Shown here: in pieces, positions 4,299 through 29,200 of the stretch | Layout of the letters: each line of letters opens with the position of its first letter | Position numbering within the stretch: position 1 is the first letter of the stretch | Source of the DNA: Elusimicrobiota bacterium | GTDB lineage: Bacteria > Elusimicrobiota > Elusimicrobia > F11 | Assembly (NCBI GenBank): GCA_046153645.1 | Contig: JBJXGI010000034.1 | Location: 1 to 64,000 of the forward strand | Direction of reading: 5' to 3' | DNA length: 64,000 nt | Notes under the pieces: model-generated | What the model was told of the DNA's origin: nothing | The model's database searches: none | The model's input: only the letters and a program-made list of their open reading frames with translations | Made by a program: the position numbers and the translations under genes

Positions 4299-7200
4299 TT
4301 ACGCGTTTTCTTCCACTCTTTTAAAACTATTGAGAAAAATATTCAATTGAAAACGAATCCAACCATCGCGGCGATGAATTATGAGGGAAATAATTTTAGC
4401 CAAGCGCTCACTTGCTTCGAAGATAACAGGTTGACGTGAAATCACGGTAATTTGACCTGTTTTAAAATGGTTATTTTGTAATTCTCTGACTGTTTTTAGT
4501 TTTGCGGCATTTGGATTTGTCAAAACCTCGTTATAACTATACAAACCTGTCATTTTATTTTTCTTTAGATTGTTGATAGGAACAATAACCATGTGTTTTT
4601 TTCGATTGTATTTTTTCATTATATTGACCACATCTTTTTCTGTTTTTTCAGAAACAATCAAAATAAGATCCTGCTTTTTACTTATTTTTTTGAGTTTTAA
4701 CATTGAATTTAAATCTAAAACATCTTCTTTTGTATTGATATGAACAATACTAAGGGAACCGCTTGTTCCGTCAAAGGCGTGGGCAATGTCAAGGCTTGTT
4801 GGTATTTGCCCCTCGAGTTGCTCCAAAATTAATTCTAAGGAGTCGGAGTTTTCATTAATCATATTCATCGGTAACTCAATCGTAGGTGGGAATGCTTGTT
4901 TTCGTGTGAAAAAATTGTAAGCAGAATGAAGAGCGCCCATAAAAATATAGGAGAGTGTGACAGTCAATTCAGGGGATAAAGAGGGGAGAAAAAACGGAAG
5001 AAAATAAGTAAAGGCCATACCACCGGCCCCAATACCGATAGCAAGCAAGAGGAGTTTGATCCTTTGAGAAATGAACCAACCCCACTGCGATGATGTGTTT
5101 TTCCCAATGAAAAGTTTTGGGTGAATGAGAGTGGCAAAGAGTCCGGCATAAATAAAAACAGCTTCCCAGTGGGAGATCGTTCCCAAAAAAACAGGCAACA
5201 CAAAACTGAATATTATCCAGCGCCCAAGTGAATCTTCTAAAAACCCACCAACCGCCGTTATTCTATTAAGCCATTTGGATTCTGATTGAGTATTTTTACC
5301 CATCCAAGTGTAGATTATGCTTAAGGGATTAAAAATAGAAAGAGCTTGAGGATTTTTAGAGTGAGTTAAACGGCGTAATTTTTCCAATGCTTTTGATTGA
5401 TATTTGGATATGTTTGACTGCGTAATACCCAGATCACTAGCGATTTCTTGTTGGGTTTTATTAAGAATAAAGTAGTCATACAAAATCTTGGCGTAACGAT
5501 GTCCCAATAGCTTTTCTAGTTGATGTTGGTAAGTTTGTACTGTTTTTTTGTCAGAGGGTTTATTATCTGATTTGATAAGTTTACGTAGTTCGGCGATTGC
5601 ATATGTTTGTCGTTTGGAGATGTTTGCCTGAGAGACATTTTCATTCTCAGCAATTTGTTTTTGAGTTTTTTCTTCTATAAATCGTTCAAGTAAAACTTTT
5701 TGGTAGAGGGGTTTGAGTTCTTTTAATCGATGTTCATTAGACCGTACCAAATCATGATCTGATATTTCATTTGGTTTAATTAATTTGTTTAGTTGTTTGA
5801 GCGCATTTGATAGTTGATCACGAAGAGCTTCAACAGTGATCCCTCTTTTAGCAGCCATTTTTTTTAGAGATTTCTTCGCAATAAAATGATCTTTCAAAAT
5901 ATCTCGATAGGACGTTTTTAGTTTATTTACAACAGCTAAATGAGTTTTAACGAATTGAGCATTCGAATCCTCATTTGAGTCGACTAGTTTCCTTAGATTT
6001 TTGAGCCCAATAAATTCCCGACTTTTAATGGTTTTATTAGAAACCTTTTTTTTGTCGGCAATAAATTGGAGAGTTTTTTCTTCAACAAAGCGAAGGTATA
6101 AAACTTCAGCATGAGAGGGCTTTAATTCATCCAAGCGTTTCAAATGGGTTAAAACGAACTGACGATCCGATGGTTCATCTGATTGGATTAGTTTTTTTAG
6201 ACGTTTTAAAGCCGTAGAAAGCATAGAACGAATGGCGGGTGGTGTTACTCCTTTTTCTTCCGCAATCTCTCTCAAAGCGCTTCCTTTAATAAAATGGCGA
6301 TATAAAACATCTGAGTGGGATGATTGCAGTTCTTTTAAACGGTGTTGGTTTGCCTTAACCATGTCGCTGTTCTCAGAATCAGCCAATTTTTTTGTTTTCT
6401 GCTTTTTAATTTGAATAGCGCTTGGTTTTTTCTCCCGGGCGAGTATTGTGTTTTCTTGTCTTAGCAACGTCGTTTTTTGAGAACCTTTAATAATATGCGG
6501 CGCTTTTTTTTCTAATTCGATTCGTCCTTTTGCCAACAATCTTTCATAGAGTTGATTTCCAGGCCAGATTTTGAAATTTTCCACAATAAAAACATCGGTA
6601 TCGTCCGCAGAAACTGGGTGTTGAAAAGTGCTGGTTTCTTCTGATGCGGTAGAATAACCATCAGCGATAATTTTCCGTATTCTTTCTTTGGTAAGGTTCA
6701 ATAGTTTTCCGATGGCTTCTAAAGTATAAGTTTCTCCATTTTTAGTCCCTATTCCAAAACGCAACTTCAAAATAATTTGATCTCGAGGTGTCAAGGCGGA
6801 TAAAACTTTTAAAACTTCCTCTTGATCTGTCATATGAATTTCAGAGCCTTTTTGGATTTCCTCAAATCCAGCGTCCAATGAATTAGTTTTCAGTGGAATC
6901 GAACGCAGCTGCTGTACTTTTTCAACTGAAAGCCCCATTTTTTCAGCTATTTCATCATTGGTTGGTTCACGATTTAATTGATTTCGTAATTGTTTTTTAA
7001 TTTTCTCAAGAAGATTAAGTTCTTTATCGAGATATTGTGGAATCCAAATTGTTTTTTCTTTTCGATATCCTTGTCGCATTGACTCTATAATCCAATCTTT
7101 TGCATAGGTAATAAAAACATAGCCTAATTGAGAATCAAATTTATCGATGGCTTTCATAAGGCCAATCACTCCATCTGCAGCTGCCTCTTCTTTATCTCTT

Positions 7201-9779
7201 CGATTTGATTGTTTTGCCAAGAACATAACGAAGTAAGTATATTTTTCAACTAAAAAATTACGAAGTAACATGTGATCCATTGGAGGTAAATTTTTGGCAC
7301 GTAAGGCATGAAATAAATCTTTTTCTTCTGTTTTGGTTAGTTTTTCTCCTGCGGTTGCCATGGTGGTTTTTATAGTTTTTATGTCAACGTTATAATCTTT
7401 TACTGTCGCAGCATTAGCTGGTTTTTTCTTTTTAAGAAGACTGATATCACCCGCAAACCCGAGAACCCATCCTCGCTTTTGAGCGATGAGATTATAGATA
7501 GCATGGAGAAAACCCATGAAGATATAAGAAGAACTTGGGAAAAAATATGCAAAACCCATGCCCCCTATGCCAATTCCAATAGCAAGTAAGAAAAGTATGA
7601 GTCTTTGAGGAATAAACCATCCCCATTCAGATGATATGTTTTTTCCTATAAAAATTTTTGGGTGAAGCACTGTTGCAAAAAGACTGGCGTAAACAAAAAC
7701 GGTAACCCAAGGAGAAAGTATTCCAAAGAGAAGGGGAAAAGCAAAAGTGAGAATAAGCCAGCGTGTGATAAATTCTTCGAAAAATCCACCGATTACAATT
7801 ATTCCGCGCCGCCATTTGGAATTGGGATCCGCATATTGTCTGACCAAAACATAAACCAAAGACAAGGGGCTTAGGATAGACGAGAGAAGAATTCGTAATC
7901 CAAGCTTAAGTAAATGAGAGGGGGGAAATCGAATGTGTTTTATCTCAACTTCAACTATTTCACCATGGGATACCTTTAGGGAAATTTCTTTACTGCCTTG
8001 GGGGCCGCTTAATTTGATACTAAAAGGGTTGTTACGGGTTGAAATATCTTCTGCCGTATCTAAGGTATGGGGGTTAAGGGCGCGCAGTGTTTTATTGGAA
8101 TTTTTATGCTCGAGTGCGGCTCCTAAAATGGCGCCTCCCGGGAGACTTGTGGCGATGGGTGGCGATAAAAATAATTTATCGCCATGAAAAAGTTTATCAA
8201 GCGGAGTTTTTTCTTGAGAAAAGACGCTTAAGTAAGAAGTACCTTTCCCTATATCTATTTTTGTTATTTTGGGAGTAAATTGAATGACAGTGTACCCGGC
8301 ATCAATCAATTTCTTTTCGATCCCAGTAGAATGGAAACCGCCAGTCACAAGAATTGATATTGAAGGCGTACTTGGTTTTTTAAGGACATTTTTTAGGAAG
8401 TTATTTGCCATCTTTTGATCTCGAATTTCTGCTTCATGGTAAAAATTTTCAAAAGGTTCTAATAATTTTTTCTCTTCATTAAGAATTGGGGCCTGGGGCC
8501 TTTGTTCTATTGCTTGATATTCCTCCCATTCTCGTTTTGTTAGTTCAAAATTTATTAATTTTTTAATGAGGTAAAGTTTACGGCATTTATCTACATGCCA
8601 TTTTTCTTGGGGTGTTTTCACCAGCGATTCATATGAATTTTTTTCTGCTAAGTTCATTTCTCTCATTAACTCATCAGAGTCAATGCTTTCTGAATGAAGG
8701 ATGTAAGTAATGTAATCTTTCAGGGCTGGGAATTTTTTAATTTCAAAACCGTGTTTGGTACATAGGTTTTCTGTGTATTGATAAAAATGAGTTCGACTTA
8801 TTTTCAATTGTTTAAAAGCCTTGGCGAATTCAAGTAGTTCGTTTGTTTCATCTTTGGTTAATCGAGGTGTGAGTTGAGAAAGAAGTCGTGTTTGTTCTCT
8901 CTCTACCTGTTCGAAGTTAAGATAAGACTCAATGTGCCGTGCTTGGAGAAATATGTTTATGTGTGCCATCATTCTTTGAGAGGGCATGTTTTTAGAAAGA
9001 TAAGACAAGTAGTCACCCATTGAAATTCTTTGACTTCTGTATTTTTCAACAACCACGTCAAATTTGGCTAATTCAGAATTAAAAATTCCAGCTTTTTCAT
9101 TTTCAAAACTTGCTTTGATTTGAGCTAAATTAATGTTGATGTCATTTTGTTTGTGTTTGGCAAGTTGATAGGCCTTTACATGAGCGATGTAATGTTTTTT
9201 GTCGTCAATACCAATAACAAGAGGCGGGTTGTTTTTAAAAGTAGAAACATTCTGAGGAGTCAGTGTCATTAAGGCTCGGATGGGGCCTGAAATTTTATTC
9301 TCCCGAAAGAGATAATTTGCGATTTTGTTGACTGTCTCTCTCCTTGGGAATTGTTGAAAGGGATGGAGGTTGATAGGGCCAAAGCCGCCTTCAAGTCCAA
9401 TAAAATCTACTTTCCCATTTTTGACCAAGGCTTGAATCAATGCGCCAATGTTTTTTTGTGCTTCTAAGTTCATATGAACATCTTGAATATGGATCACCAT
9501 TTGACCTGTTGTCGGTTGGGACGCCCTTGGGTTGAGATATTTATTGATTCTTCCATAAGCTGATAAATCAATGGTTTCTCCTGTGATCGTGAGATTTTTA
9601 TTTTTTGAATTTTTGAGAATGGTTGTTTCGATTTTCGGGAGGTTTGTGATCTGTGCGGTGAGAAACTTTTGTCGTTCATTCCAGATATTTGTTTCTTGAG
9701 AATGTAAAAATAAACAATTGTTGAAAAACAATAAAAACGAAACGATCGTAGACATGGGCTTTGTGATGATCTTCAGCAT
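4299..9779 (-). CDS. Giant modular membrane protein 1: signal peptide, EreA/ChaN/TIKI-like domain, CPBP-like module, sigma70 core, five sigma-4 HTH repeats, second CPBP-like module, C-terminal domain
   Basis: 1826-aa ORF. IQDVH/LEG/GGFH motifs. GLMKAIDKFD...FITYA..WI (sigma region 2), REPTNDEIAEKMG (region 3), LTPRDQIILKLRFG...TLEAIG...TKERIRKI (region 4). Duplicated hydrophobic EExxxR...HxxxN block. Confidence 0.85.
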   Translation of the reverse strand: MLKIITKPMSTIVSFLLFFNNCLFLHSQETNIWNERQKFLTAQITNLPKIETTILKNSKNKNLTITGETIDLSAYGRINKYLNPRASQPTTGQMVIHIQDVHMNLEAQKNIGALIQALVKNGKVDFIGLEGGFGPINLHPFQQFPRRETVNKIANYLFRENKISGPIRALMTLTPQNVSTFKNNPPLVIGIDDKKHYIAHVKAYQLAKHKQNDININLAQIKASFENEKAGIFNSELAKFDVVVEKYRSQRISMGDYLSYLSKNMPSQRMMAHINIFLQARHIESYLNFEQVEREQTRLLSQLTPRLTKDETNELLEFAKAFKQLKISRTHFYQYTENLCTKHGFEIKKFPALKDYITYILHSESIDSDELMREMNLAEKNSYESLVKTPQEKWHVDKCRKLYLIKKLINFELTKREWEEYQAIEQRPQAPILNEEKKLLEPFENFYHEAEIRDQKMANNFLKNVLKKPSTPSISILVTGGFHSTGIEKKLIDAGYTVIQFTPKITKIDIGKGTSYLSVFSQEKTPLDKLFHGDKLFLSPPIATSLPGGAILGAALEHKNSNKTLRALNPHTLDTAEDISTRNNPFSIKLSGPQGSKEISLKVSHGEIVEVEIKHIRFPPSHLLKLGLRILLSSILSPLSLVYVLVRQYADPNSKWRRGIIVIGGFFEEFITRWLILTFAFPLLFGILSPWVTVFVYASLFATVLHPKIFIGKNISSEWGWFIPQRLILFLLAIGIGIGGMGFAYFFPSSSYIFMGFLHAIYNLIAQKRGWVLGFAGDISLLKKKKPANAATVKDYNVDIKTIKTTMATAGEKLTKTEEKDLFHALRAKNLPPMDHMLLRNFLVEKYTYFVMFLAKQSNRRDKEEAAADGVIGLMKAIDKFDSQLGYVFITYAKDWIIESMRQGYRKEKTIWIPQYLDKELNLLEKIKKQLRNQLNREPTNDEIAEKMGLSVEKVQQLRSIPLKTNSLDAGFEEIQKGSEIHMTDQEEVLKVLSALTPRDQIILKLRFGIGTKNGETYTLEAIGKLLNLTKERIRKIIADGYSTASEETSTFQHPVSADDTDVFIVENFKIWPGNQLYERLLAKGRIELEKKAPHIIKGSQKTTLLRQENTILAREKKPSAIQIKKQKTKKLADSENSDMVKANQHRLKELQSSHSDVLYRHFIKGSALREIAEEKGVTPPAIRSMLSTALKRLKKLIQSDEPSDRQFVLTHLKRLDELKPSHAEVLYLRFVEEKTLQFIADKKKVSNKTIKSREFIGLKNLRKLVDSNEDSNAQFVKTHLAVVNKLKTSYRDILKDHFIAKKSLKKMAAKRGITVEALRDQLSNALKQLNKLIKPNEISDHDLVRSNEHRLKELKPLYQKVLLERFIEEKTQKQIAENENVSQANISKRQTYAIAELRKLIKSDNKPSDKKTVQTYQHQLEKLLGHRYAKILYDYFILNKTQQEIASDLGITQSNISKYQSKALEKLRRLTHSKNPQALSIFNPLSIIYTWMGKNTQSESKWLNRITAVGGFLEDSLGRWIIFSFVLPVFLGTISHWEAVFIYAGLFATLIHPKLFIGKNTSSQWGWFISQRIKLLLLAIGIGAGGMAFTYFLPFFLPSLSPELTVTLSYIFMGALHSAYNFFTRKQAFPPTIELPMNMINENSDSLELILEQLEGQIPTSLDIAHAFDGTSGSLSIVHINTKEDVLDLNSMLKLKKISKKQDLILIVSEKTEKDVVNIMKKYNRKKHMVIVPINNLKKNKMTGLYSYNEVLTNPNAAKLKTVRELQNNHFKTGQITVISRQPVIFEASERLAKIISLIIHRRDGWIRFQLNIFLNSFKRVEENA
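5370..6365 (-). repeat. Five tandem ~68-aa sigma70 region-4 (HTH) protein repeats inside giant protein 1
   Basis: Unit L..L...H/Y..VL...F....T...IA....V/I.........AL..L.KL recurs five times, starting ELQSSH, ELKPSH, KLKTSY, ELKPLY and KLLGHRY. Confidence 0.85.
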
Positions 9780-9809
9780 ACATTTATTCTAAAAAATGCA
9801 ACCGAAGAA

Positions 9810-9838
9810 CGTCTTAACAGAATGTAAATATTTTGTAA
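9810..9838 (-). promoter_or_regulatory. Conserved upstream tandem-box motif of giant gene 1
   Basis: Minus strand TTACAAAATATTTACATTCTGTTAAGACG starts 59 bp before the ATG. It is 23/29 identical to the motif before giant gene 3. Confidence 0.7.
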
Positions 9839-9886
9839 CTTTTCCGTCGGAGAAATGAATAAAATATGTAAATTAATCCTAAAAAT

Positions 9887-9925
9887 TTACAAATTTGTTT
9901 CAACCTCTTAAGGTGATCTTAATCT
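9887..9925 (+). promoter_or_regulatory. Conserved upstream tandem-box motif of giant gene 2
   Basis: TTACAAATTTGTTTCAACCTCTTAAGGTGATCTTAATCT starts 59 bp before ATG 9946 and aligns without gaps to the leader of giant gene 3. Confidence 0.6.
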
Positions 9926-9945
9926 CGAAACGCGAAAATGAGGGC

Positions 9946-12900
9946 ATGACCTTTTTCAGGCGTTATTTAGCTTTATTGTTGAGTGTTTCCATTTTCTCAA
10001 CTCAATGTGCATTTGTTCATGCCACCGAAATGAATTTATGGGCAGAACGTCGTGCGGTTTCTATCCCTTCTTCGACTCTTTTTGACCATTTTCCTCCAAT
10101 TGAGAAAGTTGTTTCTTCTCTACAGAAATTTCCTTCTTCTCTTAAGCTTTTTGCCCGTGCTGTTCCGCAGACTCGAGCCTCCATTCAAGAGTATTATTCC
10201 TCAGATGATCCACAGGGGCCTGCGGTTGTCATTATCCAAGACATTCATTTAAATGGTGAGGCTCAAAAGAACATTGCTTCTGTTTTGCAGTCGCTTATTG
10301 CGTCTTGTCAAATAGGCGTAATTGGGATTGAAGGCGCCTTTCGTTCGTTTGATTTTTCGCCATTTAAATTATTGCCCGATCAGCACCTGTTAAGATTGGT
10401 CGCTGAATCATTTTTTCATGGGGGAAAACTAATGGCGGCGTCGTATGTTGGTGTTACATCAAATGTGAAAACCCCTTTGTTTGTAGGCGTTGATAATAAA
10501 GCTCATTATGATTTAAATGTAAAAGCCTATCTCGATTCGCAACTCATCAAATCAAAAGCATGGGACGATTTAAATCACGCTCAACAAATATTAGATGTCA
10601 GTAAAAAAAATATTTTTTCCCCTAAACATGTTTACTTTGATCAACTTTATTCTGACTATCACGAAAACCGCATTGGTATTGGCGCCTATGTGGCGGCCTT
10701 AGTAGATTTGGGTGTTAAGCTTAATTCACACTTAAGTCACTTTTCTGAGGTGATCCGACTTGAATCTTCTTTGAATTTTAAACAAGTTGATGTTGAGCGT
10801 CGGATCATCTTGAATTCATTAACTGAAAAATTAACTCGTAGTGAAATGGCTGATTTAACTGAGCACAGCATGTTGTATCGATTGGGCAAAATTGGTTTGG
10901 GCGCTTACTATCGTCATTTAAAGACGCTCTGCAGTGCCAAAGGGGTAAATCTTAATCAAAAACAAGCATTTAATAATTATGTTAGATATGTGCTGCTATC
11001 TGAGAGTATTCAGTCGAAAAATATTTTTGATCACCTTGATCAACTTGAGCAGAAATTGTTTTCTGATTTATCGCGCACGCCTGAACAACGTATCCTCATA
11101 AATGAAAGTCGTCGCCTTCTTTTAGCAAAAAAACTTGTCAACTTATCTCTGACACCCGCAGAATGGAAGGCCTATCAAAATTTGCGTGCTCGCACCCCGG
11201 GTTCCATTCACCTTGACCCATTTGAAAAATTTTACACCGCAGCCGATATTCGCAGTCATTCCATGGTAGAGAATCTATTGGCGCATTCAAAATCTTCAAA
11301 TTCAATGGTTCTTTTAGCTGGTGGTTTTCATTCTCCATTGGTTGGACAATTGTTACGCGAGAAAAAAATATCTTATGTCATCATCACTCCAAAGCTGACC
11401 AAGGTCAATCGTATTTCTGGTAATGATTACTTGTCGGTTCTTGCACGTGAGAAAACACCGCTTGATAAAATATTTCAAGGAGAAAAAGTATGCCTTAAAC
11501 CGCAGATAGGCGAAATTGATCCTGATTCGTCAAGTGGACCGCAGTTGATGGCAAGTACATTGGCACGTATGGGACCCTCTGCGTTGGAAGAGGCACCATA
11601 TGTTGACTTCCCTTATGCTGGTCATAAACTTAGCCTTAAAGTAAATAAAGCCGCTGATCCTTCCGCTGATACTTTTAATTTAAAACACGAACTGAGTGTT
11701 GTTGGAAAAGAATTCGTTCGTTATCATTCGCCCTTTTTCTTGGTAACACTTCTGTATCCAGCACTTCTATCTATGTTCTGGGGCCAAGTCGCACTTGTTG
11801 TGGGTGTTGTGGTCGTATCATTTATTTTTGCTCGAAATCACAAGGCGACACTGAGTCAGAAGATTCTTTTGTTTTTTATTGGAGGTGTGTTGGGGGGCGT
11901 GATGGTGTCTCCGTCTATTGTGGCGTGGGCAGGTCAATGGGTTTTTGTCTTATCGATGGGTTTTCATTTCACCTTTAATTTATTTGTTTGGGCCGTAAAA
12001 AAGATGTCTCGTCGTCCCTTTTTGTTACGCCACGCCTCGTGGTTCGTTCAGTTTGCGCAGTGGTTGCCAAAAGCCTCAGTGGTAGAACCTGATGGAAATC
12101 GAAAAATTATTTTATCTTCAGATGGAACGCGTCTTGGTATTCTAAAAAAATTGTCTGATAGAACTCATTGGTTGCAGTTTCTTTGGGCTCCTATCATGCA
12201 ATTACGGCGCGAATCTAGAATGGACAATCCATTTGAAATTTCTGATTTTCAGTTTCACTCCAATCGTCCGTTTTTTTCCGCAGCTCAATTGAACGAGGAG
12301 GGAAAAGCCACGGGGATGATACTGGTCGATTATAACGCAGATGTTATTCCGGCTCACTATAACTTTGAGGCACCGATAAAGGTTGTTGATTCAAGTTTTG
12401 TTTTTTTAGATGGTACCCAAGACAGAATGATTTGGGCTATTGCAGAACACAATAAAATTCAAATAAATTATTTTGACGGTGTGGGTACTCTTACCAGAAT
12501 AAAAACAATTGATTTTGTTGATCCTGATGACTCTTTTTCGGAAATTAAACTGTCTGATGATGGAACTACCCTTTTCACGAAAACAAAAAAAGGGTGCTTG
12601 AAAATGTGGGAAACAACAGGAGATTCGAAATCACCCATATTTGAAATCCCATCAAAAAAGCAGAACCTTAAGATTGATCATTTCGATGTTTCTTCTTATC
12701 AAAATCATAACCCTTTGATTTTTTCATCAATAGATTCTGAACAAGGCGCGCAGCGTTTACTTGTGGCTTTAGAAAAAATGGTTTTCGTTTCAGATTTAAA
12801 GACGGGGGAAATGCTAGGAGAAGGTTATTTACTTCATGCTCCGCCAACACATGTCTGCCTTTCAGCTGATGGAAGGTTCTTTGCTGTTGCTATTCAAAAT

Positions 12901-15405
12901 GAAGTGCAGCTTTGGAATATTGCACTTCGCCAAATGGTCCAAAAATTCTCATTTGAGTCTCATATTCAGAGTTTAACGTTATCTCGAGACGGGACTCATT
13001 TTGCTGTTGTAGTAAATGAGGCTGTTATTTTAGAAGAAACAAAATTTCCTTCAGTTGCTGCTGTTTCAGAGAGAGTAAATTTTAGCTCAGAAGATTGGGG
13101 TTTTTATAAACACACTAAAGTCCCTTTATCAATATTAAATCAAGTTGGAGACGCGCTTGCTCGTTGGTTGTCAAATTTATTGGGTGAAGCTGGTTTTATT
13201 GGTGTTGCTTTTAAAGAAGGCATGCGTTTTAAAGACACAATAAACTGGTGGGGATACAAAGGGGCGCGAGCGGGTCCCCTCCAATATCATACGGGGCTAG
13301 ATTTTTCCGTTGGAACAAAGTCAGATGGATCTCATGAACAGTTTAAGGCTGGACAAGCTATTCTTGCTATGAAGAGAGGAAAGGTTGTCGGAAAGTTTGA
13401 AGATAGTATGGGAGAAACGCTCATTGTCGCTTCGGGTGAGTTTATTGTTTTTTACACACATATTCTTGTGGCAACAAATAAAAAATCAGGGAAATCTTAT
13501 GCGATAGGTGATGAAGTTGAAGATCCTGATCTGATTGGTTATTTTACAAACCCACGGAACGATACCTCAACAACTTCGCGGCATTTACATTTGGGCACGG
13601 GTCGAATGAAAGTTGAACATCAGTCAAGGTTGGAAAATTTGACGAAAGGCAAAGAATTTGAAGAGTTAGATCAAATGGTATTGGACGGAATTTTAGAACT
13701 GTATAACCCAGAAGAATTCTTTGACCCTGAACAACTGGGTACGTTTGAAACCATTTCGTATGGATTTATTGATAAAACAATACTTGTTCATCCTAATAAA
13801 GAGATAACTGGCGTATTCGACAAGTTTCGTCGGCTTATCGGTCTTCGGTATCCGGGTATCGCTATGCCAGGAGCCATAACTGAAGAAAAATGGGAAAAAT
13901 TAATTGAACAAGAAGACGTTCACGTTGTCGTTGTTTCTGATCGCCCTCTTCAAGAAAAATTAGCTGAAAAGTATAAAAATCGAAAAATAATTCTTTTTTT
14001 AGAGCCCAATTTTTCTGACCCAGATGGCGATGAGTTTTTAGAAGAAATCGAATTGATTCGAAAATTAGGGCCTGTTTATGGAAAAACGGTTGGTCATTTT
14101 TTTACGGATGATCAGATATCTGAAGAATTTCAAATTGACGATGTGCTTAGTTCTTTTGATGATATGAAAACGCTGCTTCAATTAATTAATAACCCCGCGC
14201 TCTTGATGCGTTATCTTCCTACTTCCTTTTTGCGGTGGCGTTTTTTGAAGATTATTGCAGAAAAAGCCCCTTGGATTATTCAATTGAAAGCTATTTTTGG
14301 TGAAACAGGTTTATTGTTGAAAGCATCAAATGGGCATGAGATGAATTATCATCCACCCAAAGAATTAGCTCTTGCTGATTTTGTTTCAACGATGAATCCA
14401 GCTCTTACTACTAATCAGTTTGGATGGATGCCAAATGAATTACTTCTTCGTGTCATCGCTCCTTTAATCCTTCTTCTGCCAGATCAAATGAACTTATCTA
14501 CAATGCGTCGATTCTTTCCTCCAGAAATGGAAGAAAAAATCAACCATCACGAAAAAGTTTCAGATTTGTTAAATGCGGAATCAAAAAATATAGGAGATTT
14601 AATTGATAAAGAGTCTCCATCGGTAATTAATATTGTCTTTAAACTTATTGCAGATGGAACTTCTTTAGGCTTAGATCAGCTATTGAGAGTCTGGGAAGAT
14701 ATATTTTTGTTGGAATCCCCAATAGAAGACGAGTTAGATGATGAAGAGGATTCTCAGATTGAAGTAACGTATTCTTTGGAAATTGTTAGTACCGAAGATG
14801 AAAGTGTTGATGAAGTTCTTTTTAATCGTTGGATTAAAGGGACTCCTCTCGAGCAATATATTGAATCGATAACAGTTGTTATAAATAGTCCGAATGAATT
14901 AAAAGGTCAGTTTAATCTGAAAAATAACTTGAAAGGAGATCTTAGTGTCATATCAGGTCAGGTTCGGCCTTTTGTTGTGAAAGCAAATCAAACAGGTGTA
15001 GTTACTGACATTTTAAGTCCTGGTAAAGGTTATAGTGAATGGATTATTTGGAGTATTTTAAATGACTTAAAACAGAAAGGATTTCAAACAGTTCATTTTT
15101 CGGTTAATTCTAGTGAAGAAAACCAGCCGAATTATCTTTTCTTTTTTGGAGATGAAAATAATAAAGGTTTTATTAAGCGGTGGAATGAGAAATGGCGAAC
15201 TGTTTCTGTAAATGACCCAATCTACGTAAGTAGCGATACTGATTTTGAACGTTGGATTATCATCGTTGCACTTCAGCAATTTGATATGAAAGATGTTCGT
15301 CCAACAGAAGAATGGTTAAATGGTGAAATTCCTGCTATGGAAATAAAGCGGCAACATTTAAAGAAAATAGATGCTTTCGCTAAAGGGACCCTCAAAGCGG
15401 CTTAA
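9946..15405 (+). CDS. Giant modular membrane protein 2: signal peptide, EreA/ChaN/TIKI-like domain, degenerate CPBP-like TM module, WD40-like beta-propeller, M23 peptidase, GNAT-like C-terminal region
   Basis: IQDIH/IEG/GGFH motifs. FIFARNH...HFTFN in a hydrophobic block. LSDDG/LSADG/LSRDG blade repeats. HTGLD and HLH zinc motifs. PGKGYS...GFQTVHFSV. Start placed at ATG 9946 (GAGGG upstream, signal peptide follows). Confidence 0.8.
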   Translation: MTFFRRYLALLLSVSIFSTQCAFVHATEMNLWAERRAVSIPSSTLFDHFPPIEKVVSSLQKFPSSLKLFARAVPQTRASIQEYYSSDDPQGPAVVIIQDIHLNGEAQKNIASVLQSLIASCQIGVIGIEGAFRSFDFSPFKLLPDQHLLRLVAESFFHGGKLMAASYVGVTSNVKTPLFVGVDNKAHYDLNVKAYLDSQLIKSKAWDDLNHAQQILDVSKKNIFSPKHVYFDQLYSDYHENRIGIGAYVAALVDLGVKLNSHLSHFSEVIRLESSLNFKQVDVERRIILNSLTEKLTRSEMADLTEHSMLYRLGKIGLGAYYRHLKTLCSAKGVNLNQKQAFNNYVRYVLLSESIQSKNIFDHLDQLEQKLFSDLSRTPEQRILINESRRLLLAKKLVNLSLTPAEWKAYQNLRARTPGSIHLDPFEKFYTAADIRSHSMVENLLAHSKSSNSMVLLAGGFHSPLVGQLLREKKISYVIITPKLTKVNRISGNDYLSVLAREKTPLDKIFQGEKVCLKPQIGEIDPDSSSGPQLMASTLARMGPSALEEAPYVDFPYAGHKLSLKVNKAADPSADTFNLKHELSVVGKEFVRYHSPFFLVTLLYPALLSMFWGQVALVVGVVVVSFIFARNHKATLSQKILLFFIGGVLGGVMVSPSIVAWAGQWVFVLSMGFHFTFNLFVWAVKKMSRRPFLLRHASWFVQFAQWLPKASVVEPDGNRKIILSSDGTRLGILKKLSDRTHWLQFLWAPIMQLRRESRMDNPFEISDFQFHSNRPFFSAAQLNEEGKATGMILVDYNADVIPAHYNFEAPIKVVDSSFVFLDGTQDRMIWAIAEHNKIQINYFDGVGTLTRIKTIDFVDPDDSFSEIKLSDDGTTLFTKTKKGCLKMWETTGDSKSPIFEIPSKKQNLKIDHFDVSSYQNHNPLIFSSIDSEQGAQRLLVALEKMVFVSDLKTGEMLGEGYLLHAPPTHVCLSADGRFFAVAIQNEVQLWNIALRQMVQKFSFESHIQSLTLSRDGTHFAVVVNEAVILEETKFPSVAAVSERVNFSSEDWGFYKHTKVPLSILNQVGDALARWLSNLLGEAGFIGVAFKEGMRFKDTINWWGYKGARAGPLQYHTGLDFSVGTKSDGSHEQFKAGQAILAMKRGKVVGKFEDSMGETLIVASGEFIVFYTHILVATNKKSGKSYAIGDEVEDPDLIGYFTNPRNDTSTTSRHLHLGTGRMKVEHQSRLENLTKGKEFEELDQMVLDGILELYNPEEFFDPEQLGTFETISYGFIDKTILVHPNKEITGVFDKFRRLIGLRYPGIAMPGAITEEKWEKLIEQEDVHVVVVSDRPLQEKLAEKYKNRKIILFLEPNFSDPDGDEFLEEIELIRKLGPVYGKTVGHFFTDDQISEEFQIDDVLSSFDDMKTLLQLINNPALLMRYLPTSFLRWRFLKIIAEKAPWIIQLKAIFGETGLLLKASNGHEMNYHPPKELALADFVSTMNPALTTNQFGWMPNELLLRVIAPLILLLPDQMNLSTMRRFFPPEMEEKINHHEKVSDLLNAESKNIGDLIDKESPSVINIVFKLIADGTSLGLDQLLRVWEDIFLLESPIEDELDDEEDSQIEVTYSLEIVSTEDESVDEVLFNRWIKGTPLEQYIESITVVINSPNELKGQFNLKNNLKGDLSVISGQVRPFVVKANQTGVVTDILSPGKGYSEWIIWSILNDLKQKGFQTVHFSVNSSEENQPNYLFFFGDENNKGFIKRWNEKWRTVSVNDPIYVSSDTDFERWIIIVALQQFDMKDVRPTEEWLNGEIPAMEIKRQHLKKIDAFAKGTLKAA

Positions 15406-16031: not shown

Positions 16032-16796
16032 ATGAAAAGAAAGTTTTTTTTGTTTGGAATGTTAGGAATTTTAATGGCTTGCGCGACGGTTCCTTATACC
16101 AATCGCAAACAATTTAATTTGATCTCTCCAGGTCAGGAAATGCAATTGGGTGAAGAAGCCTATGCCGATATTCTTAAAAAAACACCTAGGTCTTCTAACC
16201 ATCAATGGACTGAGATGGTTAAGCGAGCTGGAGCAAACATTCAAAGAGTGGCCGAACAACCAGATTTTAAATGGGAATTTAATCTTCTTCAGGGAAAGGA
16301 AGTAAATGCTTTTTGTCTGCCAGGTGGAAAAGTTGCGTTTTGGGATGGCATCATACCGATTTGTAAAGATGAAACGGGTATTGCTGTTGTTATGGGGCAT
16401 GAAGTGGCTCACGCTTTGGCTCGCCATGGGGCAGAACGAATGAGTCAAGGAATGGGAGCACAGATTATTGGTCAAGTGTTATCTCTTGGGCTTGGGAAAG
16501 CAGACCCTGCTGTTCGTGAAAAAACCCTTCAGCTTTATGGTTTAGGGGCTCAAGTGGGTGTTATTCTTCCTTTTAGTCGGGGAAACGAGTCCGAGGCTGA
16601 TCATATTGGTCTTATATTAATGGCCAAGGCAGGGTACGATCCGCGACAAGCTGTTGAGTTTTGGAAAAGAATGGCCGCTCAATCTGGCGGACAAAAACCT
16701 CCTGAGTTTATGTCGACCCATCCCAGTGATGAAACCCGTATTCAACAGTTAGAAAAATGGTTGCCTGAAGCTCTCACATATTACACTGCTAAATAG
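16032..16796 (+). CDS. M48 family Zn metallopeptidase lipoprotein (LoiP/Oma1-like)
   Basis: Lipobox LMAC, NAFCLPGGK, HEVAH, ESEAD, STHPS. Confidence 0.92.
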   Translation: MKRKFFLFGMLGILMACATVPYTNRKQFNLISPGQEMQLGEEAYADILKKTPRSSNHQWTEMVKRAGANIQRVAEQPDFKWEFNLLQGKEVNAFCLPGGKVAFWDGIIPICKDETGIAVVMGHEVAHALARHGAERMSQGMGAQIIGQVLSLGLGKADPAVREKTLQLYGLGAQVGVILPFSRGNESEADHIGLILMAKAGYDPRQAVEFWKRMAAQSGGQKPPEFMSTHPSDETRIQQLEKWLPEALTYYTAK

Positions 16797-23296: not shown

Positions 23297-26200
23297 ATGA
23301 AGAACTTGAATTCCCAACCCTCCCTTTTTCATCGCCTTTGCGCGTCTTTTTTGGTGGTTGTACTGTTTCTCTCAGGCACGGTTTTTGCTCATAATTTAGA
23401 GACAAATATATGGGAAGATCGCCGCCGGAAAACGTCGGCAGCCTCCCAACTGGCCTCCCTCCCTCAAGTCCGAATTTTTGATTCGACGCTCCGGCATTTT
23501 CAAAGATCATCACCATCGCTGCGTCTGCCCGTTGGGTTAAATGATCGTTCGCTCATTGCCGATCTGCAAAAAAATGGCGTAATTCGCGATGTGAAAAATG
23601 GTAGTGGACCATTCACCGTCATTTACATTCAAGACGTCCACGGCCATGCCGAGGCGCAACGCAACATCGCCGGTATGATTTTGTCCGTGCTGGCGCGCCA
23701 TCCTAAGGCCACGATTGGTCTGGAAGGGGCCTCCGGCCCGATCTCTCTTCACGCGTTTCGCGTGTCAACGCCCGAGATCAACAAACAGATCGGTTCTTTT
23801 CTTTTAAACACCGCCATCATCACCGGCGCTGAATACGCCGGGTTTGCTGCGGCGTTGACACCACGCATGATCGGCATCGAAGATGCGCCGCTTTACGTGG
23901 AGAACGTTGAGGCTCTTCGTAGCGCGCTGGCCGGACAAGCCTCGGCGTTGGATCAGAAAAATGCGGACGACCGACAACTCTCCGAACGCAAACGGCAAGA
24001 ATATTCTGTAGCTCTTATTTCTCTTAATGCTCAGCGTGAAGCTTATGAGAATGGTCAGGAAGGTCTCGGCACTTATTTAGCGGCTCTCTCTCGCGTTCAA
24101 CCCGGAGCAGTGGCTTCGTTTAAAAATATCGATCTCTTTTTAAAAACATGGACGTTGGAAAGCACGTTGGACTTCGATCGAGCCGAGCGCGAGCGAAAAG
24201 AATTTTTTTTGCACTTGGTGCCGGCGCTCACAAAAGAACAGCTCGATAATCTCTCCGCCCGCGGCCTGGCGCTTCGCACCGGCGACCTTCGTTATCCCGA
24301 CTTTTATGCTTTTCTCAAAACCTTGGCGGCGCAATCGGGCCTTTCGCTCTCCTCGACGCCGACCTTCGATCGTTATGTGAATTACACTCTACAAGCTGAT
24401 TCCATTCGTGCTGAAACGCTTTTTTCGGAAATCCCTGTTTTTGAAGACCGCGTGTGGCGTGCGCTTTGCACGAATTCTCGGCAACGAGAGATTTACGAAG
24501 CCTCAGTGGCGGCAGGTTTAACCGGCAAACTATTGAAACTGAAATTGACCGCGGAAGAATGGGAGCAAGCAAAAAAACGCGCGTCCACTGAACTCCAAGC
24601 CTTTCCCTCTTTCGCTGCTTTCTACCGCGCCGCCGAAGCGCGCAACGCGGCGCTCGCCTCACGTTTTGAAACGGTACGCGTAGAATCGCCCGAAAAAGTG
24701 TCGGTGGTGCTCGCTGGTGGTTTCCACTCGGCAGGCTTAACCGCCCTCATTGCTCGGGACGCAACGGTGATAACGGTTTCACCTAAATTGAGCACGGAGA
24801 ACCGATCCTTCGATAATGAATACCTCAACGTCTTCACGCGCGAAAAAACGCCGCTTGAGAAAATTTTTGAAGCGCCGAAGATTTCGATTGTGATGACCTT
24901 GGCCACGAAATCAATTCGAAATACCGCGGGGCAGATTCTCAACGGAATGTCGTTGGTGCTGGTCACGCTTATCGATCCTTTGGCTGAAGCTCTCGGGAAG
25001 TTAAGCGCTCAAACGGTTGCTTCATCTGCCAGGGGACCGATTTATGTGTCGGTCACTACAAACGGCGGCAGAATGGAAAGTGATCCGAAAAGTCCACCGC
25101 TCTTGGAAGGAGTCGTCACCGGTGAGGTGAAGGCGCGTGTGTGGGCCACGACTGAAGGAAAGAAACTCACGAAAGAACAAATCATGGGCCGCGTTTGGGG
25201 AACGGAATATTGGCACTCGCTCCCAACGCTTACATCCGCATGGGCGGTCGCGGTGTTCACTCGGATCTCCGGGTTTTCCTTAACCACTCAGCTGCTAGCA
25301 GCTCTGGTTGCCGGTTTGATTGGTCTCATATGGGCCGTTCGGAAGATTCGCGATCAACACCGGGTCACGCACAATGTCGAAGGATTGCGCCAAGTAACGC
25401 CGATCTTGATCTTTTACGGAATAGTTTCGCTCGTGGTCTTTTTGGCGGCTTATGCAGCGACGTTCAATGTAACTTGGTTGGATCCAAAAATCGCGATTCT
25501 CTTGGCTGTCGGCGCTGGGTTCTTGGTGTATCAGGGGCTTCATTATGGACGGAACCTCAAAGCGATAAATGATTCCTCCATTGCGCCGCTGGCGACGACC
25601 GGTGTTCATTTCATTGACGTGAGAAACTTGAGATTCGGTGACGTCCCCGCACAAGCCATCGAAAACGCATTTGCGCGTCCAGAGGCCCTGGGCGGCCCTC
25701 AACGTCGTCTGCTGTCTGAAAAGTGGGTGGGACACGACAGGGTTCTCACGCTCTACGAAGTGACCGAGGAGGGAGGACGGCCCGCCCCCTATTTTAGAAA
25801 GGAAGGGAAAGTCGATCGGCCGGAAGCCTACCAGGTGTTTCACATGCGTCGACCTGAACAGCATCCGTTTCTTCCGAGAGAGCTTACGGAGATATTTTTC
25901 GGAAAAGCGCTTTACGATCACGTTAAGCGAGCGAATCTCGTAGGAGTTCTGAATAATTTAATTGGTCGAATACGTGAAAATAGGTTCTTGATGATATCCA
26001 CGGACAATGACCTGCAGTTGCTTCGGTTGCTAGCCGTCATTCAGCACTCGGTCGCTTTTCGCTGGGATGAAATTCTTCGGAGAAAACAGGGGGCCGTGGA
26101 AGATCAGACCGTCCCCGTTAAATTTCCGGTTGGTTATGACTCCGATGGAAATCTTGTGATGAAGTGGTTAAGGGATGAGGACGACCGGATTATGCCGCTG

Positions 26201-29200
26201 ACGAGAAACATGGTGCGCAATACCCGGGACAAGTGGATGTTGAACGCTCACAGCGTTCACGTCATCGTCGTTGTCGAAGGAGAAATCGTTTTCAAAATCC
26301 GCGACAAGGATACTGCCGGCGGTGACGACCAAGTGGATGGGGCCGTCGGACACACAGAAGTAAAGGAGGATGGAGAACCTGAAATGCTGGAGGAGACGGC
26401 TTTTCGTGTCCTCGGGGAAGAATTTTTTAGAATGACTGCTGATCAATTGAAAGAAACCAAGGGAAAGTTTTTGCGCGAAGCTCAGAAAAACGGAGACCTT
26501 CAGCTCGTTCGCGTCGGAAAGCCGGGCATGTTCGCCAATATCAGAAAATTGGTGATTCGACCGGATGGTTCAATCTTCACGGTTCCCCTTGGTCACGAAG
26601 ATGATGAGGACTGGTCCAGCCAAGGCAGCGTCGTGGAGGTTCCTTTCGAGACCGCTGATCTTTGTTTGGCGGTGATGCCGCGTAAGTTGGCGGAGGCGGG
26701 CGGATCCTTTCGCCAGAAAACCTTCGACGAATGGTTGGAAGAATTTCGATCAGGCCAGATTGTTCTTGGTCCATCCGCCAAGAATCTTTTCGGTCTCGCC
26801 AAGACGCTGGATCCGGCCCTGCCAAATGTCGTTCGGACGAAGCTCATGAAGTTGACGGAGACATCAGGTGATGTCGACTTCAGCTTCTCTCTCGGCGGCT
26901 CTAATGAATTTACCGTCGAAACGCATTCGCGTTTGCACAGCGAAGGAAAGTTCTCCGAGGTTCTTCAACTCATCGGCAACGAGCTTGGGCTCAAAGCCGA
27001 CGGCCGTGGATATTTCAACTTTCGTGAGTGCGTTAAACAGCGTGGTTTCAGTGGTTTCATTCGAAACGGGCGCACGACGCTGGAATTGTTACCGGACGGA
27101 ACGCTCGTTATTATCGATCCGCGCTTCGGCGATGACCACGTGTCGCGCGGCGACCGAACCATTTTTACCCGCACACGGGTCAAGGCCCAGCATAAAATTT
27201 CGGAAGCGAGATCTTGGGCTGCATTCGCCATTGAACAAGGCCTCGCTAAGAGCGCTTCGGAACCGTGGGCGTCAAAATTGTACGCCTGGATAAGAGGCAT
27301 TTCAGTTAAAGATTGGGATCGCCGTTTGGAGTTTCGTGTGTTGCCGCGGCGCTATAACCTTGTTCGAGAGAAGTACCGTGAGTTTCACGAAAGAGCTCTT
27401 CGAGAAGAACAGAATGCCTTCGAGAAACTCTATAACCGTGTTTTGAAATCGGTTCGCCACCTGCAGGGCAAGTTGGGCAAACAAAAGGTCCACATTTTCG
27501 TCGACCAATCCACGGTCCTCTCGATTCTCGACTTGATTTTCTCGGAGAACATTTCATGGAGAAAGGCCGTCGGTGCTTGGTTGCGTGACGTTCGCCGGCG
27601 GTGGTGGGAGTTGAAGCGTTTTCCCGGCGCCGAGAATTCCCCCAATGCCTCTCCGGCCAAGAATGGCCACGGTTTCAATGATCCCGTCGTTTTCTCGAGC
27701 GAAAGTGGTCTCGCTCAGTCGCAAGTAGGCGAAGACCCTGCCGATGCGCGAGCGCATCAGGTGGCCGTCGAGGTGAACAAAAAACTTCGAGGACGTGTTT
27801 TAAGCAGGGTAAGCAGGGCCTACGCGAATAGTGATTTGCGTCAGCTGCCGCACTTTAACCTCGACGGCAAGAGAACGTCGTTCGAGATCACCGATCATTC
27901 GCCAAATGAATTGCCGACGCTTTGTCGAATCGGCGACCGTATTTTCATCTTCCTGCCCAAACATAAATTTGTGGATATTGGAAAGGTCGTGCACCTGTTC
28001 GATAAAAGCGGTCTTATTTTCTTCGCGCTGCCCGCTGATCTCGCTGGTTTTTTGCGCCACAGGAAAAATCCCGAGGAGTGGGACACGGAAACGATTGGAC
28101 AGGAGATCGATGACATAAAGAAAATATTGGGCGACATCTACGTCCAAAACCAAGCAAACATCATTTTCACGAACGCCGATCCCTACGACCGGAGGATATT
28201 TTCCGGAACGGAATATCTTAGTCACCTTCTTGACCACCAGCAGGATTCGGCGGACGCGATAAAGGAGAAGGAGTTGGAAGTTCCATCGACGCCCTCAATT
28301 CCCGAGTTGCCGGCTGAGATGGTGGTGAATGCCGCGCCGATGGACGCGACAAAGGGGTTGGAAGATTTACCCGACGCCCGCGAGTCTCTTGCCTACCTCG
28401 ACCTCCTAGTAAATAAGCCGGGTTTTTCAGCAAAGGTACCGCTTATGCCGAAGCCATCAATTCCCAAGCCGCCGGTCGAGGAGATGTCGGTTACCGCTTT
28501 TGGTGGATACTATTTCTCCTTGCCTTCCCATAAACCGACAGCCGAGGCCTTGCGCGCTTTTCTCCGTCAAATCAAGTTTGAAAACCATGGCGAAATATTC
28601 GAATTCTTGATGGGTGGCAAACCGCGACTTCTATCTGACCTGGTGAAACTGTTGGGGTTGTCCAATGAAGAGACCATCCTTGATCTCGCTGCGGAGGGTT
28701 TTTTCCTTATAGATCGCCAATGGCGTGTGCAAATGGCCGGCGAAACGTTGACATCAACTCGAGGTGTGGACGGCCGGGAGGTTTTCTTGTTTGCGAAGAA
28801 GCACTCGTTCGTAAGGACGCAGCCCGGAGCGGCGGGGTTCTGGAAGACGTGGTTTGGCTGGACGAATCTTTATTGGATCGGCGTGGTAGAAGGAATTATT
28901 TTACAAGCTGGATTTATTCGATACGTCGCTGTGTCGTGGGCGCAGGCGCCGCCGATTCCGCTTTTACTGGAAGCTTGGTTGTTCCTTTTCATCTCCGTCT
29001 ATCTGATTCATTTTTTTACGGGCGTGATTCGCGCCGATGGTGAGGTTATCCACTACGATCCTTATCTCTCCTTCCAGGCCACGCTTACCGCGCAGTGGAG
29101 TTTTGTTCCGATTCTCGGTCCGTTTTTGCATGGATGGGCGAATACGCGGGCTGCGGCACGCCAAGCCGATAAGTCTGATGATATCACCGCTTTTGTCGAC

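Follow-up and report, generated by a model that had tools for sequence, protein, structure and literature searches.

The 64,000-nucleotide (nt) stretch of DNA analysed here (the window; contig JBJXGI010000034.1 of the Elusimicrobiota bacterium assembly GCA_046153645.1) carries on its minus strand a gene whose product, we propose, is a single-polypeptide, membrane-anchored sigma factor within a family of giant modular membrane proteins. One uninterrupted open reading frame (4299..9779, 1826 amino acids (aa)) encodes a signal-peptide-like N-terminus, a head domain, a hydrophobic block (block 1), a sigma-70 unit, five further region-4-like helix-turn-helix (HTH) repeats, a second copy of the block (block 2) and a C-terminal tail, in this order. 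We propose that each block is a divergent form, reduced to minimal size, of the four-helix core that carries the catalytic site in the CPBP/Rce1 glutamic intramembrane proteases. In the reading that we favour, to which we give a probability of about 45%, the sigma factor would be sequestered at the membrane and released by proteolysis next to the two modules; the modules themselves would likely do the cutting, and the exported head might act as a sensor or regulator. A first-pass annotation of the sequence had described a sigma factor sandwiched between two CPBP-like blocks at 4900-7900. This unit is present and enclosed by the frame, as part of a larger protein with a head of ~600 aa upstream and a tail of 190 aa downstream. 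The sigma unit does lie between the blocks, together with the region-4-like repeats (aa 1136-1477), which the annotation had not listed and which separate it from block 2.

The gene as a single open frame

The frame runs for 1826 codons without a stop, and pieces of it are matched at at least 99% identity by public contigs from four DNA runs of one study, in which neither joints nor indels are seen. These contigs are only 150-450 nt long and bridge none of the domain junctions. Since the assembly (2.63 Mb) is divided into 105 contigs and the two blocks are 71% identical in DNA over 254 nt, a misassembly or sequencing error that fused separate genes into one long frame was considered. Such an artefact is highly improbable: identity at this level is probably too low to mislead an assembler, and colinear block-to-sigma homologues occur in independent genomes. 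The N-terminus resembles a signal peptide, and the N-termini of paralogues are likewise hydrophobic and end in ...FAH, which is consistent with a predicted export of the N-terminal part of the protein.

The two membrane blocks share the catalytic residues of CPBP proteases

The limits of the blocks were set by profile (aa 634-779 and aa 1481-1639), which makes them slightly longer than the ~135 aa of the first estimate. As that estimate had also held, they are similar to each other even at the DNA level: 73 of 149 residues are identical (49%; BLASTP E 6e-51), and the DNA is 70.9% identical across 254 nt (E 4e-32). An iterated local hidden Markov model (HMM) search of the genome found no copies beyond these two. 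All the motifs quoted in the first-pass annotation are found in the frame where it had placed them. Block 1 contains GGFFEEFITR at aa 664 (nt 7761-7790), LFATVLH at aa 700 (nt 7662-7682) and HAIYN at aa 759 (nt 7491-7505), and block 2 contains GGFLEDSLGR at aa 1511, LFATLIH at aa 1547 and HSAYN at aa 1618.

As described in the available part of the text of PMC11980579, CPBP enzymes are glutamic intramembrane endopeptidases whose domain is formed by transmembrane (TM) helices TM4-TM7, with EExxxR on TM4 and HxxxN on TM7. A water molecule is held by Glu and His, and the oxyanion hole is formed by the His and Asn of HxxxN. These catalytic residues, the ones on which activity depends, are precisely those conserved in the blocks. 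We aligned 11 block sequences whose identities to block 1 range from 29 to 56%. All 11 have the motif-2 His, conservation of the motif-3 His and Asn is at least 90%, and nine of the ten sequences that cover motif 1 have its first Glu and its Arg. Motif 1 (E-E-x3-R) lies at the start of a TM helix in block 1 and, with its second Glu changed, in block 2, and motif 3 (H-x3-N) lies on the last core helix of both. Motif 2 of CPBP proteins has the form FxxxH. In the blocks its spacing is F-x4-H, one residue longer, as had been noted at first reading for LFATVLH.

The block family is rare. A search with the two-block profile returned ten representatives among 1.84 billion proteins: seven proteins of 2200-3400 residues, the window's own protein (1818 aa in the database) and two short fragments. 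PF02517, the Pfam family of CPBP proteins, is the only Pfam family matched by more than one member of the block family (4/11, best E 0.0017). Two paralogues carry a Pfam-scored CPBP domain directly behind the head, in the place equivalent to block 1. In one of them (contig C29) this domain scores 22.9 bits, above the curated PF02517 cut-off of 22.4 bits; in the other (contig C19) it scores 17.9 bits in the Pfam scan and 22.8 bits, above the cut-off, in a six-frame search.

Structure model and predicted membrane topology

The AlphaFold2 model of block 1 (mean pLDDT 84.7, pTM 0.76) comprises five helices. When it was compared with 48,161 chains, the first rank was taken by SpdC (6u0o_A; Z 7.8, rmsd 2.8, 104 residues aligned) and the second by Rce1 (4cad_C; Z 7.3, rmsd 3.8, 122 residues), and the next chain had a Z of 5.9. 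In our reading, the weight of this match comes from the identity of the top-ranked chains rather than from Z, and it suggests a CPBP-like fold for the model.

The topology was read from loop charges on the modelled helices of block 1, by the positive-inside rule. Lys and Arg are clustered in the a-b loop (SKWRRG), in the c-d loop behind the catalytic His (HPKIFIGKN...QR) and behind helix e (QKRG...KKKK). The two remaining loops, b-c and d-e, are short and carry no charge. If the head is exported, this distribution of charges would put the sigma unit in the cytoplasm and each of the three motifs at the cytoplasmic leaflet, as the reading of the first-pass annotation requires. We infer a cytoplasmic location for the sigma unit and everything downstream of block 1, with membrane anchors on both sides of the sigma unit and its repeats. 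The hydropathy of the segment that corresponds to helix a in block 2 (SIFNPLSIIYTWMG) stays under the threshold used. Because block 2 comes behind HTH repeats predicted to be cytoplasmic, it would most simply cross the membrane four times and return the tail to the cytoplasm.

The sigma unit and the region-4-like repeats

The sigma core recognized at first reading was borne out by Pfam models of regions 2, 3 and 4, which passed their cut-offs with 27.9 (cut-off 24), 53.9 (25.3) and 165.1 bits (24.1; summed over six stretches), and by TIGR02937 with 153.7 bits (42.9). None of the equivalog or subfamily models of RpoD, RpoS, SigB/F/G and FliA reached its own cut-off on the window protein. The closest relative within the genome is the 587-aa primary sigma factor (E 1e-23). 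Compared with it, the window sigma keeps the core-binding stretch of region 2 (GLMKAIDKFD...F.TYA..WI), has a variant region 2.4 box (TIWIPQY where the primary sigma factor has TIRIPVH), and possesses a canonical region 4.2 helix (LTKERIRKI). By resemblance to this primary sigma factor, its residues in regions 2.2 and 4.2 look canonical.

The five region-4-like repeats are 34-42% identical in self-BLAST (E 2e-9 to 3e-15), and Pfam places Sigma70_r4 in six stretches and r4_2 in four stretches of the window protein. Linkers of about 55-90 residues are found on either side of the sigma unit, and the last HTH repeat ends at aa 1477, about four residues from the start of block 2 at aa 1481. No anti-sigma domain is among the 19 Pfam families listed for the window protein at E <= 1. 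An internal start at Met807, just upstream of region 1.2, was considered as a general mechanism and rejected, because this Met is not conserved in the G414 homologue described below and the product would still be anchored through block 2.

The module-sigma pairing recurs in relatives

The G414 homologue is a frame of 1973 aa in which a block (aa 1174-1304) is followed by a sigma unit (aa 1357-1567). Its colinearity with the window protein extends over 458 residues (33% identity) and takes in the linker and the conserved post-sigma segment. This block-sigma cassette is located ~690 aa behind the head, with other TM segments in between, which indicates that the block and the sigma unit travel as a unit. 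A further relative, G317, has a head, a block, a sigma-like stretch and a second block. In P0004, a protein labelled Candidatus Omnitrophica, a canonical PF02517 domain (28.6 bits) stands ~325 aa upstream of a homologous sigma unit that is in turn followed by region-4-like repeats.

A second type of CPBP-like module was found in paralogue L020 (G000:C31:7197-14609 (-), 2471 aa), which is arranged as head-M-sigma-M-sigma-M-sigma-M-tail, M being the module. Each of its three sigma units consists of regions 2 plus 4 and is flanked by modules of this type, in which E-E-x2-R, H-A-x2-H and H-x2-N-N are invariant. The L020 modules are not detected by the block profile, and none of the four gives a PF02517 match at E <= 10. 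With a model of one of them (pLDDT 78), SpdC was the best of the 48,161 chains (Z 6.9, next chain 5.3), and Rce1 was not among the best 50 matches. In G350, too, the second module type is followed by a sigma unit. Overall, a CPBP-like or CPBP module is located upstream of sigma in six of nine sigma-bearing giant frames examined (the window gene, L020, L038, L016, L036 and P0004); in the other three (L021, L037 and L039), a crude motif and profile screen found no module.

Both module types are infrequent. Among the sampled genomes, 8 of 401 from the phylum have the block type and 6 of 301 from the class have the second type, the window's genome being counted in each case. A contig search with block 1 plus sigma was dominated by ordinary sigma factors; among the 80 loci retained, none had a match to the query ahead of residue 119, so that this search bears on neither the block nor its taxonomy.

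A candidate cutting or docking site is found behind the modules. A motif of the form hydrophobic-Leu-(Gly/Ala/Pro)-(Met/Phe), located 8-13 residues past the catalytic Asn, is common to both module types: 10 of the 11 complete tails that belong to the first type have it, as do 7 of 10 tails of the second. It reads W-V-L-G-F in block 1, W-G-V-L-P-M in the modules on contig C31, and P-L-G-M-M or V-L-G-M-A in relatives. In the model of block 1, the V-L of the tail forms a beta bridge, and K-I-F-I, right behind the catalytic His, is a strand.

Points against the proposed reading and alternative explanations

Several results weigh against the reading of the window protein as a sigma factor released by protease modules. 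Block 1 alone scores 16.9 bits against PF02517 (E 0.0077; profile positions 11-93 of 93), which is below the cut-off; block 2 has no match to this family at E <= 10, and PF02517 is not listed at E <= 1 for the whole window protein. Alignment with hhalign of the 11-sequence block profile with one CPBP of the same genome, P0004 and small local alignments, a comparison with few canonical CPBP sequences, was not significant and recovered only short motif stretches at a probability of at most 2.5%, and the two-block profile had 0 matches at E <= 10 among PDB sequences. The structural comparison tool warns that Z < 8 can be reached by chance for helical proteins, and Foldseek, run with the block 1 model against the PDB, gave nothing at E <= 0.001, with Rce1 not among the matches listed. 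Block 2 has E-D in motif 1 where block 1 has E-E, and its tail is the single exception among the complete tails of its type that lacks the candidate site. The -35 recognition helix of region 4.2 is diverged in the G414 and P0004 homologues and the entire sigma unit of G317 is degenerate, which makes selection for classical sigma function questionable. A public run search listed no RNA runs holding the gene.

Because of the sub-threshold PF02517 score, we call the blocks CPBP-like and not members of PF02517 as curated. The CPBP assignment of the first-pass annotation thus stands in part: the conserved Glu, His, His and Asn and the two top-ranked chains, SpdC and Rce1, speak for it, and the Pfam scores of the two blocks do not. 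We read the blocks as divergent, minimal CPBP-like modules that probably retain catalytic ability.

The blocks might instead serve as anchors, or as proteases or scaffolds for other substrates, within a protein that is never cut and whose sigma unit and HTH array work, or stay inactive, at the membrane. Membrane-bound DNA-binding proteins such as ToxR and CadC provide a model for such a permanent tether. Non-catalytic scaffold CPBP proteins exist, and SpdC is the best structural match of block 1; CflP has been described as a noncatalytic CPBP protein. The motif 1 variant of block 2 and the presence of the block beside many unrelated cargoes are also compatible with this explanation, and the linkers around the sigma unit would leave it some movement. 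However, the four catalytic residues are present in both blocks and in nearly all relatives, although scaffolding does not need them. Moreover, a sigma factor must bind core polymerase and DNA, yet about four residues separate the HTH array from its anchor, block 2. We therefore regard a permanent tether as unlikely, though still a serious contender.

The distribution of the block raises a further alternative. Elsewhere the block type occurs with unrelated cargo, namely a sugar transferase and DUF218, mannitol dehydrogenase and radical SAM, SecA and HTH_3, GNAT and HEAT, and also Ser/Thr kinases, DnaJ and FHA. The block is accordingly not dedicated to sigma factors, a further point against the favoured reading. 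The claim of a one-polypeptide device therefore needs qualification: the module-sigma pairing recurs, but the device is not stand-alone, being one cargo version of a family of 48 frames. The cytoplasmic segments could be interchangeable cassettes shuffled between membrane modules, with the blocks acting as generic junctions, anchors or processing elements and the sigma unit as a passenger, perhaps non-classical (e.g. an RNA polymerase decoy) or decaying. The head common to the 48 frames and the TM clusters that follow it and punctuate the cargo fit such shuffling, as do the degenerate sigma unit of G317 and the diverged region 4.2 of G414 and P0004. It fits less well with a block and sigma unit that move as one colinear piece in G414, with a sequence-distinct second module type that flanks each of the three sigma units of L020, with sigma or HTH_3 cargo in several block-bearing proteins, or with the canonical region 2 and 4.2 residues that the window sigma keeps. 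Shuffling of passenger cassettes thus appears rather unlikely to us. As a separate observation, an XRE-type HTH_3 domain is located upstream of the same block type in the giants P0015 and P0017 and in a 273-aa fragment (locus L017), so that non-sigma DNA-binding cargo also accompanies the module.

The head family, its upstream element and the genome context

The genome contains 109 open frames of at least 900 aa, the longest of 10,189 aa. Between aa 4833 and 9488 of this longest frame, groups of about five TM segments are spaced ~550-700 aa apart. A local HMM search with the head profile found the head in 48 open frames of the genome, always N-terminal, three of them within the window. In nearly all of these frames a cluster of TM segments stands directly behind the head, and further clusters come later in the chain. 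The head is 31% identical over 638 aligned positions to that of the divergent neighbour P0002, and QD.H, EG and GGFH are invariant among 13 head sequences. The heads of three paralogues or relatives match PF04187 (ChaN/Tiki) at 25.2, 21.7 and 16.3 bits, below the cut-off of 27.7. The head of the window protein itself has no Pfam match in the Tiki/TraB-PrgY/ChaN/erythromycin-esterase superfamily, and its profile found nothing relevant among PDB sequences. A query of the ESM Atlas with the head returned no named cluster and one unnamed Omnitrophota cluster at 0.89.

The genes of this family have an upstream element in common (window 9780-9894 for the sigma-bearing gene): GTTACAA-N5-TTTACA, then (C)TTAAG-N5-7-TTAAG, and a TATAAT-like box ~6-12 nt before the ATG. 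A composite pattern of the element has 53 matches in the genome, 19 of which are located within 400 nt upstream of 15 of the 48 family frames, where 0.19 would be expected. The short distance between the -10-like box and the ATG suggests leaderless or very short-leader mRNAs. Two paralogues, encoded on contigs C80 and C54, end in a version of the 190-aa tail of the window protein (E 2.8e-10 and 4.6e-7), which points to a tail module common to part of the family. The junction motifs RSExR and GARLA were found in none of 42 paralogue tails of the genome, and RSEVR occurs several times in P0004, once just before its sigma unit.

Two further giant genes lie in the window. The divergent neighbour (9895-15405 (+), 1836 aa) has weak WD40-propeller-like and M23-peptidase-like matches behind its head, and a family member at 23297-30118 (+) (2273 aa) has no Pfam match at E <= 1e-5. 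A gene for an M48-family peptidase (16032-16796 (+); PF01435, E 1.4e-39) is located 600 nt downstream of the neighbouring giant gene. The features of the sigma-bearing gene are compiled in Table 1; the region 1.2 label of one linker segment is our assumption.

Table 1. Features of the gene for the proposed membrane-anchored sigma factor and of its upstream element, in window coordinates.
Feature	Positions	Strand	Details
Upstream element	9786..9839	(-)	GTTACAA 9833-9839, TTTACA 9823-9828, TTAAG 9813-9817, -10-like TAGAAT 9786-9791 ending 6 nt before ATG
Whole gene	4299..9779	(-)	1826 codons and stop, single open frame
Signal-peptide-like N-terminus, aa 1-27	9699..9779	(-)	two Lys, then hydrophobic run STIVSFLLFFNNCLFL
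Head domain, aa 28-627	7899..9698	(-)	QD.H ... E.. ..EG ... GGFH invariant; common to 48 open frames of the genome
Block 1, aa 634-779	7443..7880	(-)	five helices; E668-E669-x3-R673, H706, H759-x3-N763; tail W-V-L-G-F
Lys-rich linker and segment presumed to be region-1.2-like (LTKTEEKDLFHAL)	7251..7442	(-)	colinear with G414 homologue and P0004
Sigma-70 region 2, aa 844-909	7053..7250	(-)	PF04542, 27.9 bits (cut-off 24); six-frame match with the same coordinates
Sigma-70 region 3, aa 920-970	6870..7022	(-)	PF04539, 53.9 bits
Sigma-70 region 4, aa ~990-1040	6660..6812	(-)	LKLRFGIGT ... LTKERIRKI; PF04545; alignment with the genome's primary sigma factor
Conserved post-sigma segment, aa 1056-1086 (ADDTDVFIVENFKIWPGNQLYERLLAKGR; begins ADDTDVFIVENF)	6522..6614	(-)	aligned in P0004 and G414 homologue
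Five tandem ~68-aa region-4-like HTH repeats, aa 1136-1477	5349..6374	(-)	self-BLAST and Pfam
Block 2, aa 1481-1639	4863..5339	(-)	E1515-D1516-x3-R1520, H1553, H1618-x3-N1622; first helix weakly hydrophobic, tail motif not kept
C-terminal tail domain, aa 1640-1826 (190 aa)	4302..4862	(-)	no Pfam match

Comparison with known systems

Membrane-embedded proteases liberate a sigma factor in two pathways of Bacillus subtilis, pro-sigma-K/SpoIVFB and RsiW/PrsW-RasP. PrsW belongs to the wider CPBP-like clan and cuts the anti-sigma factor, not the sigma factor, and SpoIVFB is a zinc site-2 protease. In both pathways the protease and its substrate are separate proteins, unlike in the arrangement proposed for the window protein. 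The blocks share with the CPBP/Abi/type II CAAX prenyl proteases (PF02517; MmRce1 4CAD, SpdC 6U0O, myxosortase MrtX) the four-helix core, motif 1 at a helix start, the motif-2 His, and H-x3-N on the last helix. They differ from PF02517 proteins in their sub-threshold HMM score, in having 4-5 helices instead of 8, and in a family-specific motif, LFATVLHPK.F.G, with its longer F-to-H distance. In contrast to stand-alone CPBP proteins, they are embedded once or twice within proteins of 1800-3400 aa, and no lipidated or C-terminal substrate is evident.

A closer parallel to the window protein as a whole is IutY of P. putida (ECF243), a fused sigma/anti-sigma protein that is freed by Prc and RseP; ECF48/52/53 and ECF36 proteins with TM extensions are predicted to work in the same way (PMC8999054, in the sections available). 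As in IutY, for which proteolytic release has been reported, the sigma factor and the membrane tether of the window protein are in one polypeptide. Proteins of the IutY type are ECF sigma factors, which possess only regions 2 and 4; their membrane part consists of one to four plain TM helices, they include an anti-sigma domain, and they are cut by separate proteases (Prc and RseP). The window protein, on the other hand, has region 3 and five additional region-4 units, shows no recognisable anti-sigma domain and is predicted to be anchored on both sides by tethers that themselves resemble proteases. We therefore rate it as a proposed case of regulated proteolysis of a membrane-held sigma factor in a new arrangement, with the sigma unit between protease-like modules, while tethered and proteolytically released sigma factors as such are already known.

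The first-pass annotation knew of no description of this architecture. The literature searches agree, as no description of a CPBP-sigma fusion was found in them, judged in part from titles and abstracts, although IutY shows that membrane-tethered sigma factors released by proteolysis have precedents. Neither 'CAAX' nor 'protease domain' appears in the portion available of the 2021 paper on ECF classification. Giant genes of Omnitrophota have been described by West-Roberts et al. 2023 (bioRxiv 10.1101/2023.11.21.568195), where, in the available text, the processing of giant proteins into pieces is stated as an open question. Sigma, CAAX, CPBP and TraB are not mentioned in the accessible main text of this preprint or of a 2026 Omnitrophota preprint; the supplements of these preprints could list such domains.

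Proposed mechanism and its meaning

In the mechanism that we favour, the presumably exported and Tiki/ChaN-like head would face outward, and block 1 would lead the chain from outside to inside in five crossings. The sigma-70 unit (regions 1.2 to 4) and the five region-4 HTH units would hang in the cytoplasm, and block 2, with four crossings, would serve as the second anchor and leave the tail cytoplasmic. The catalytic Glu, His, His and Asn of both blocks would lie at the cytoplasmic leaflet. Tethered at both ends, the sigma factor could not freely serve RNA polymerase, and proteolysis beside the blocks would free it. The blocks would be the prime candidates for the protease, cutting either their own chain or a neighbouring copy, possibly under the control of the head.

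A more far-reaching version may be envisaged, in which the protein is a self-excising device composed of a hydrolase-like outward head, glutamic-protease modules and one or several sigma factors. The freed sigma factor, perhaps together with the region-4 array reading direct repeats, would then switch on the upstream element of the ~48 giant paralogues, which fill a large share of the 2.6-Mb genome. We consider this version quite improbable.

The control of sigma factors through membrane proteolysis is a central theme of bacterial signalling. In the studied cases known to us, the sensor, the protease and the sigma or anti-sigma factor are separate proteins, or at most the sigma factor is fused to its anti-sigma factor. 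To our knowledge, the bacterial substrates of CPBP proteases are mostly unknown. If the modules of the window protein cut, it would be the first one-protein version of a sigma-release pathway and the first sigma-linked role of CPBP proteases. The gene also offers a testable handle on whether the giant proteins of Elusimicrobiota and Omnitrophota are processed into pieces.

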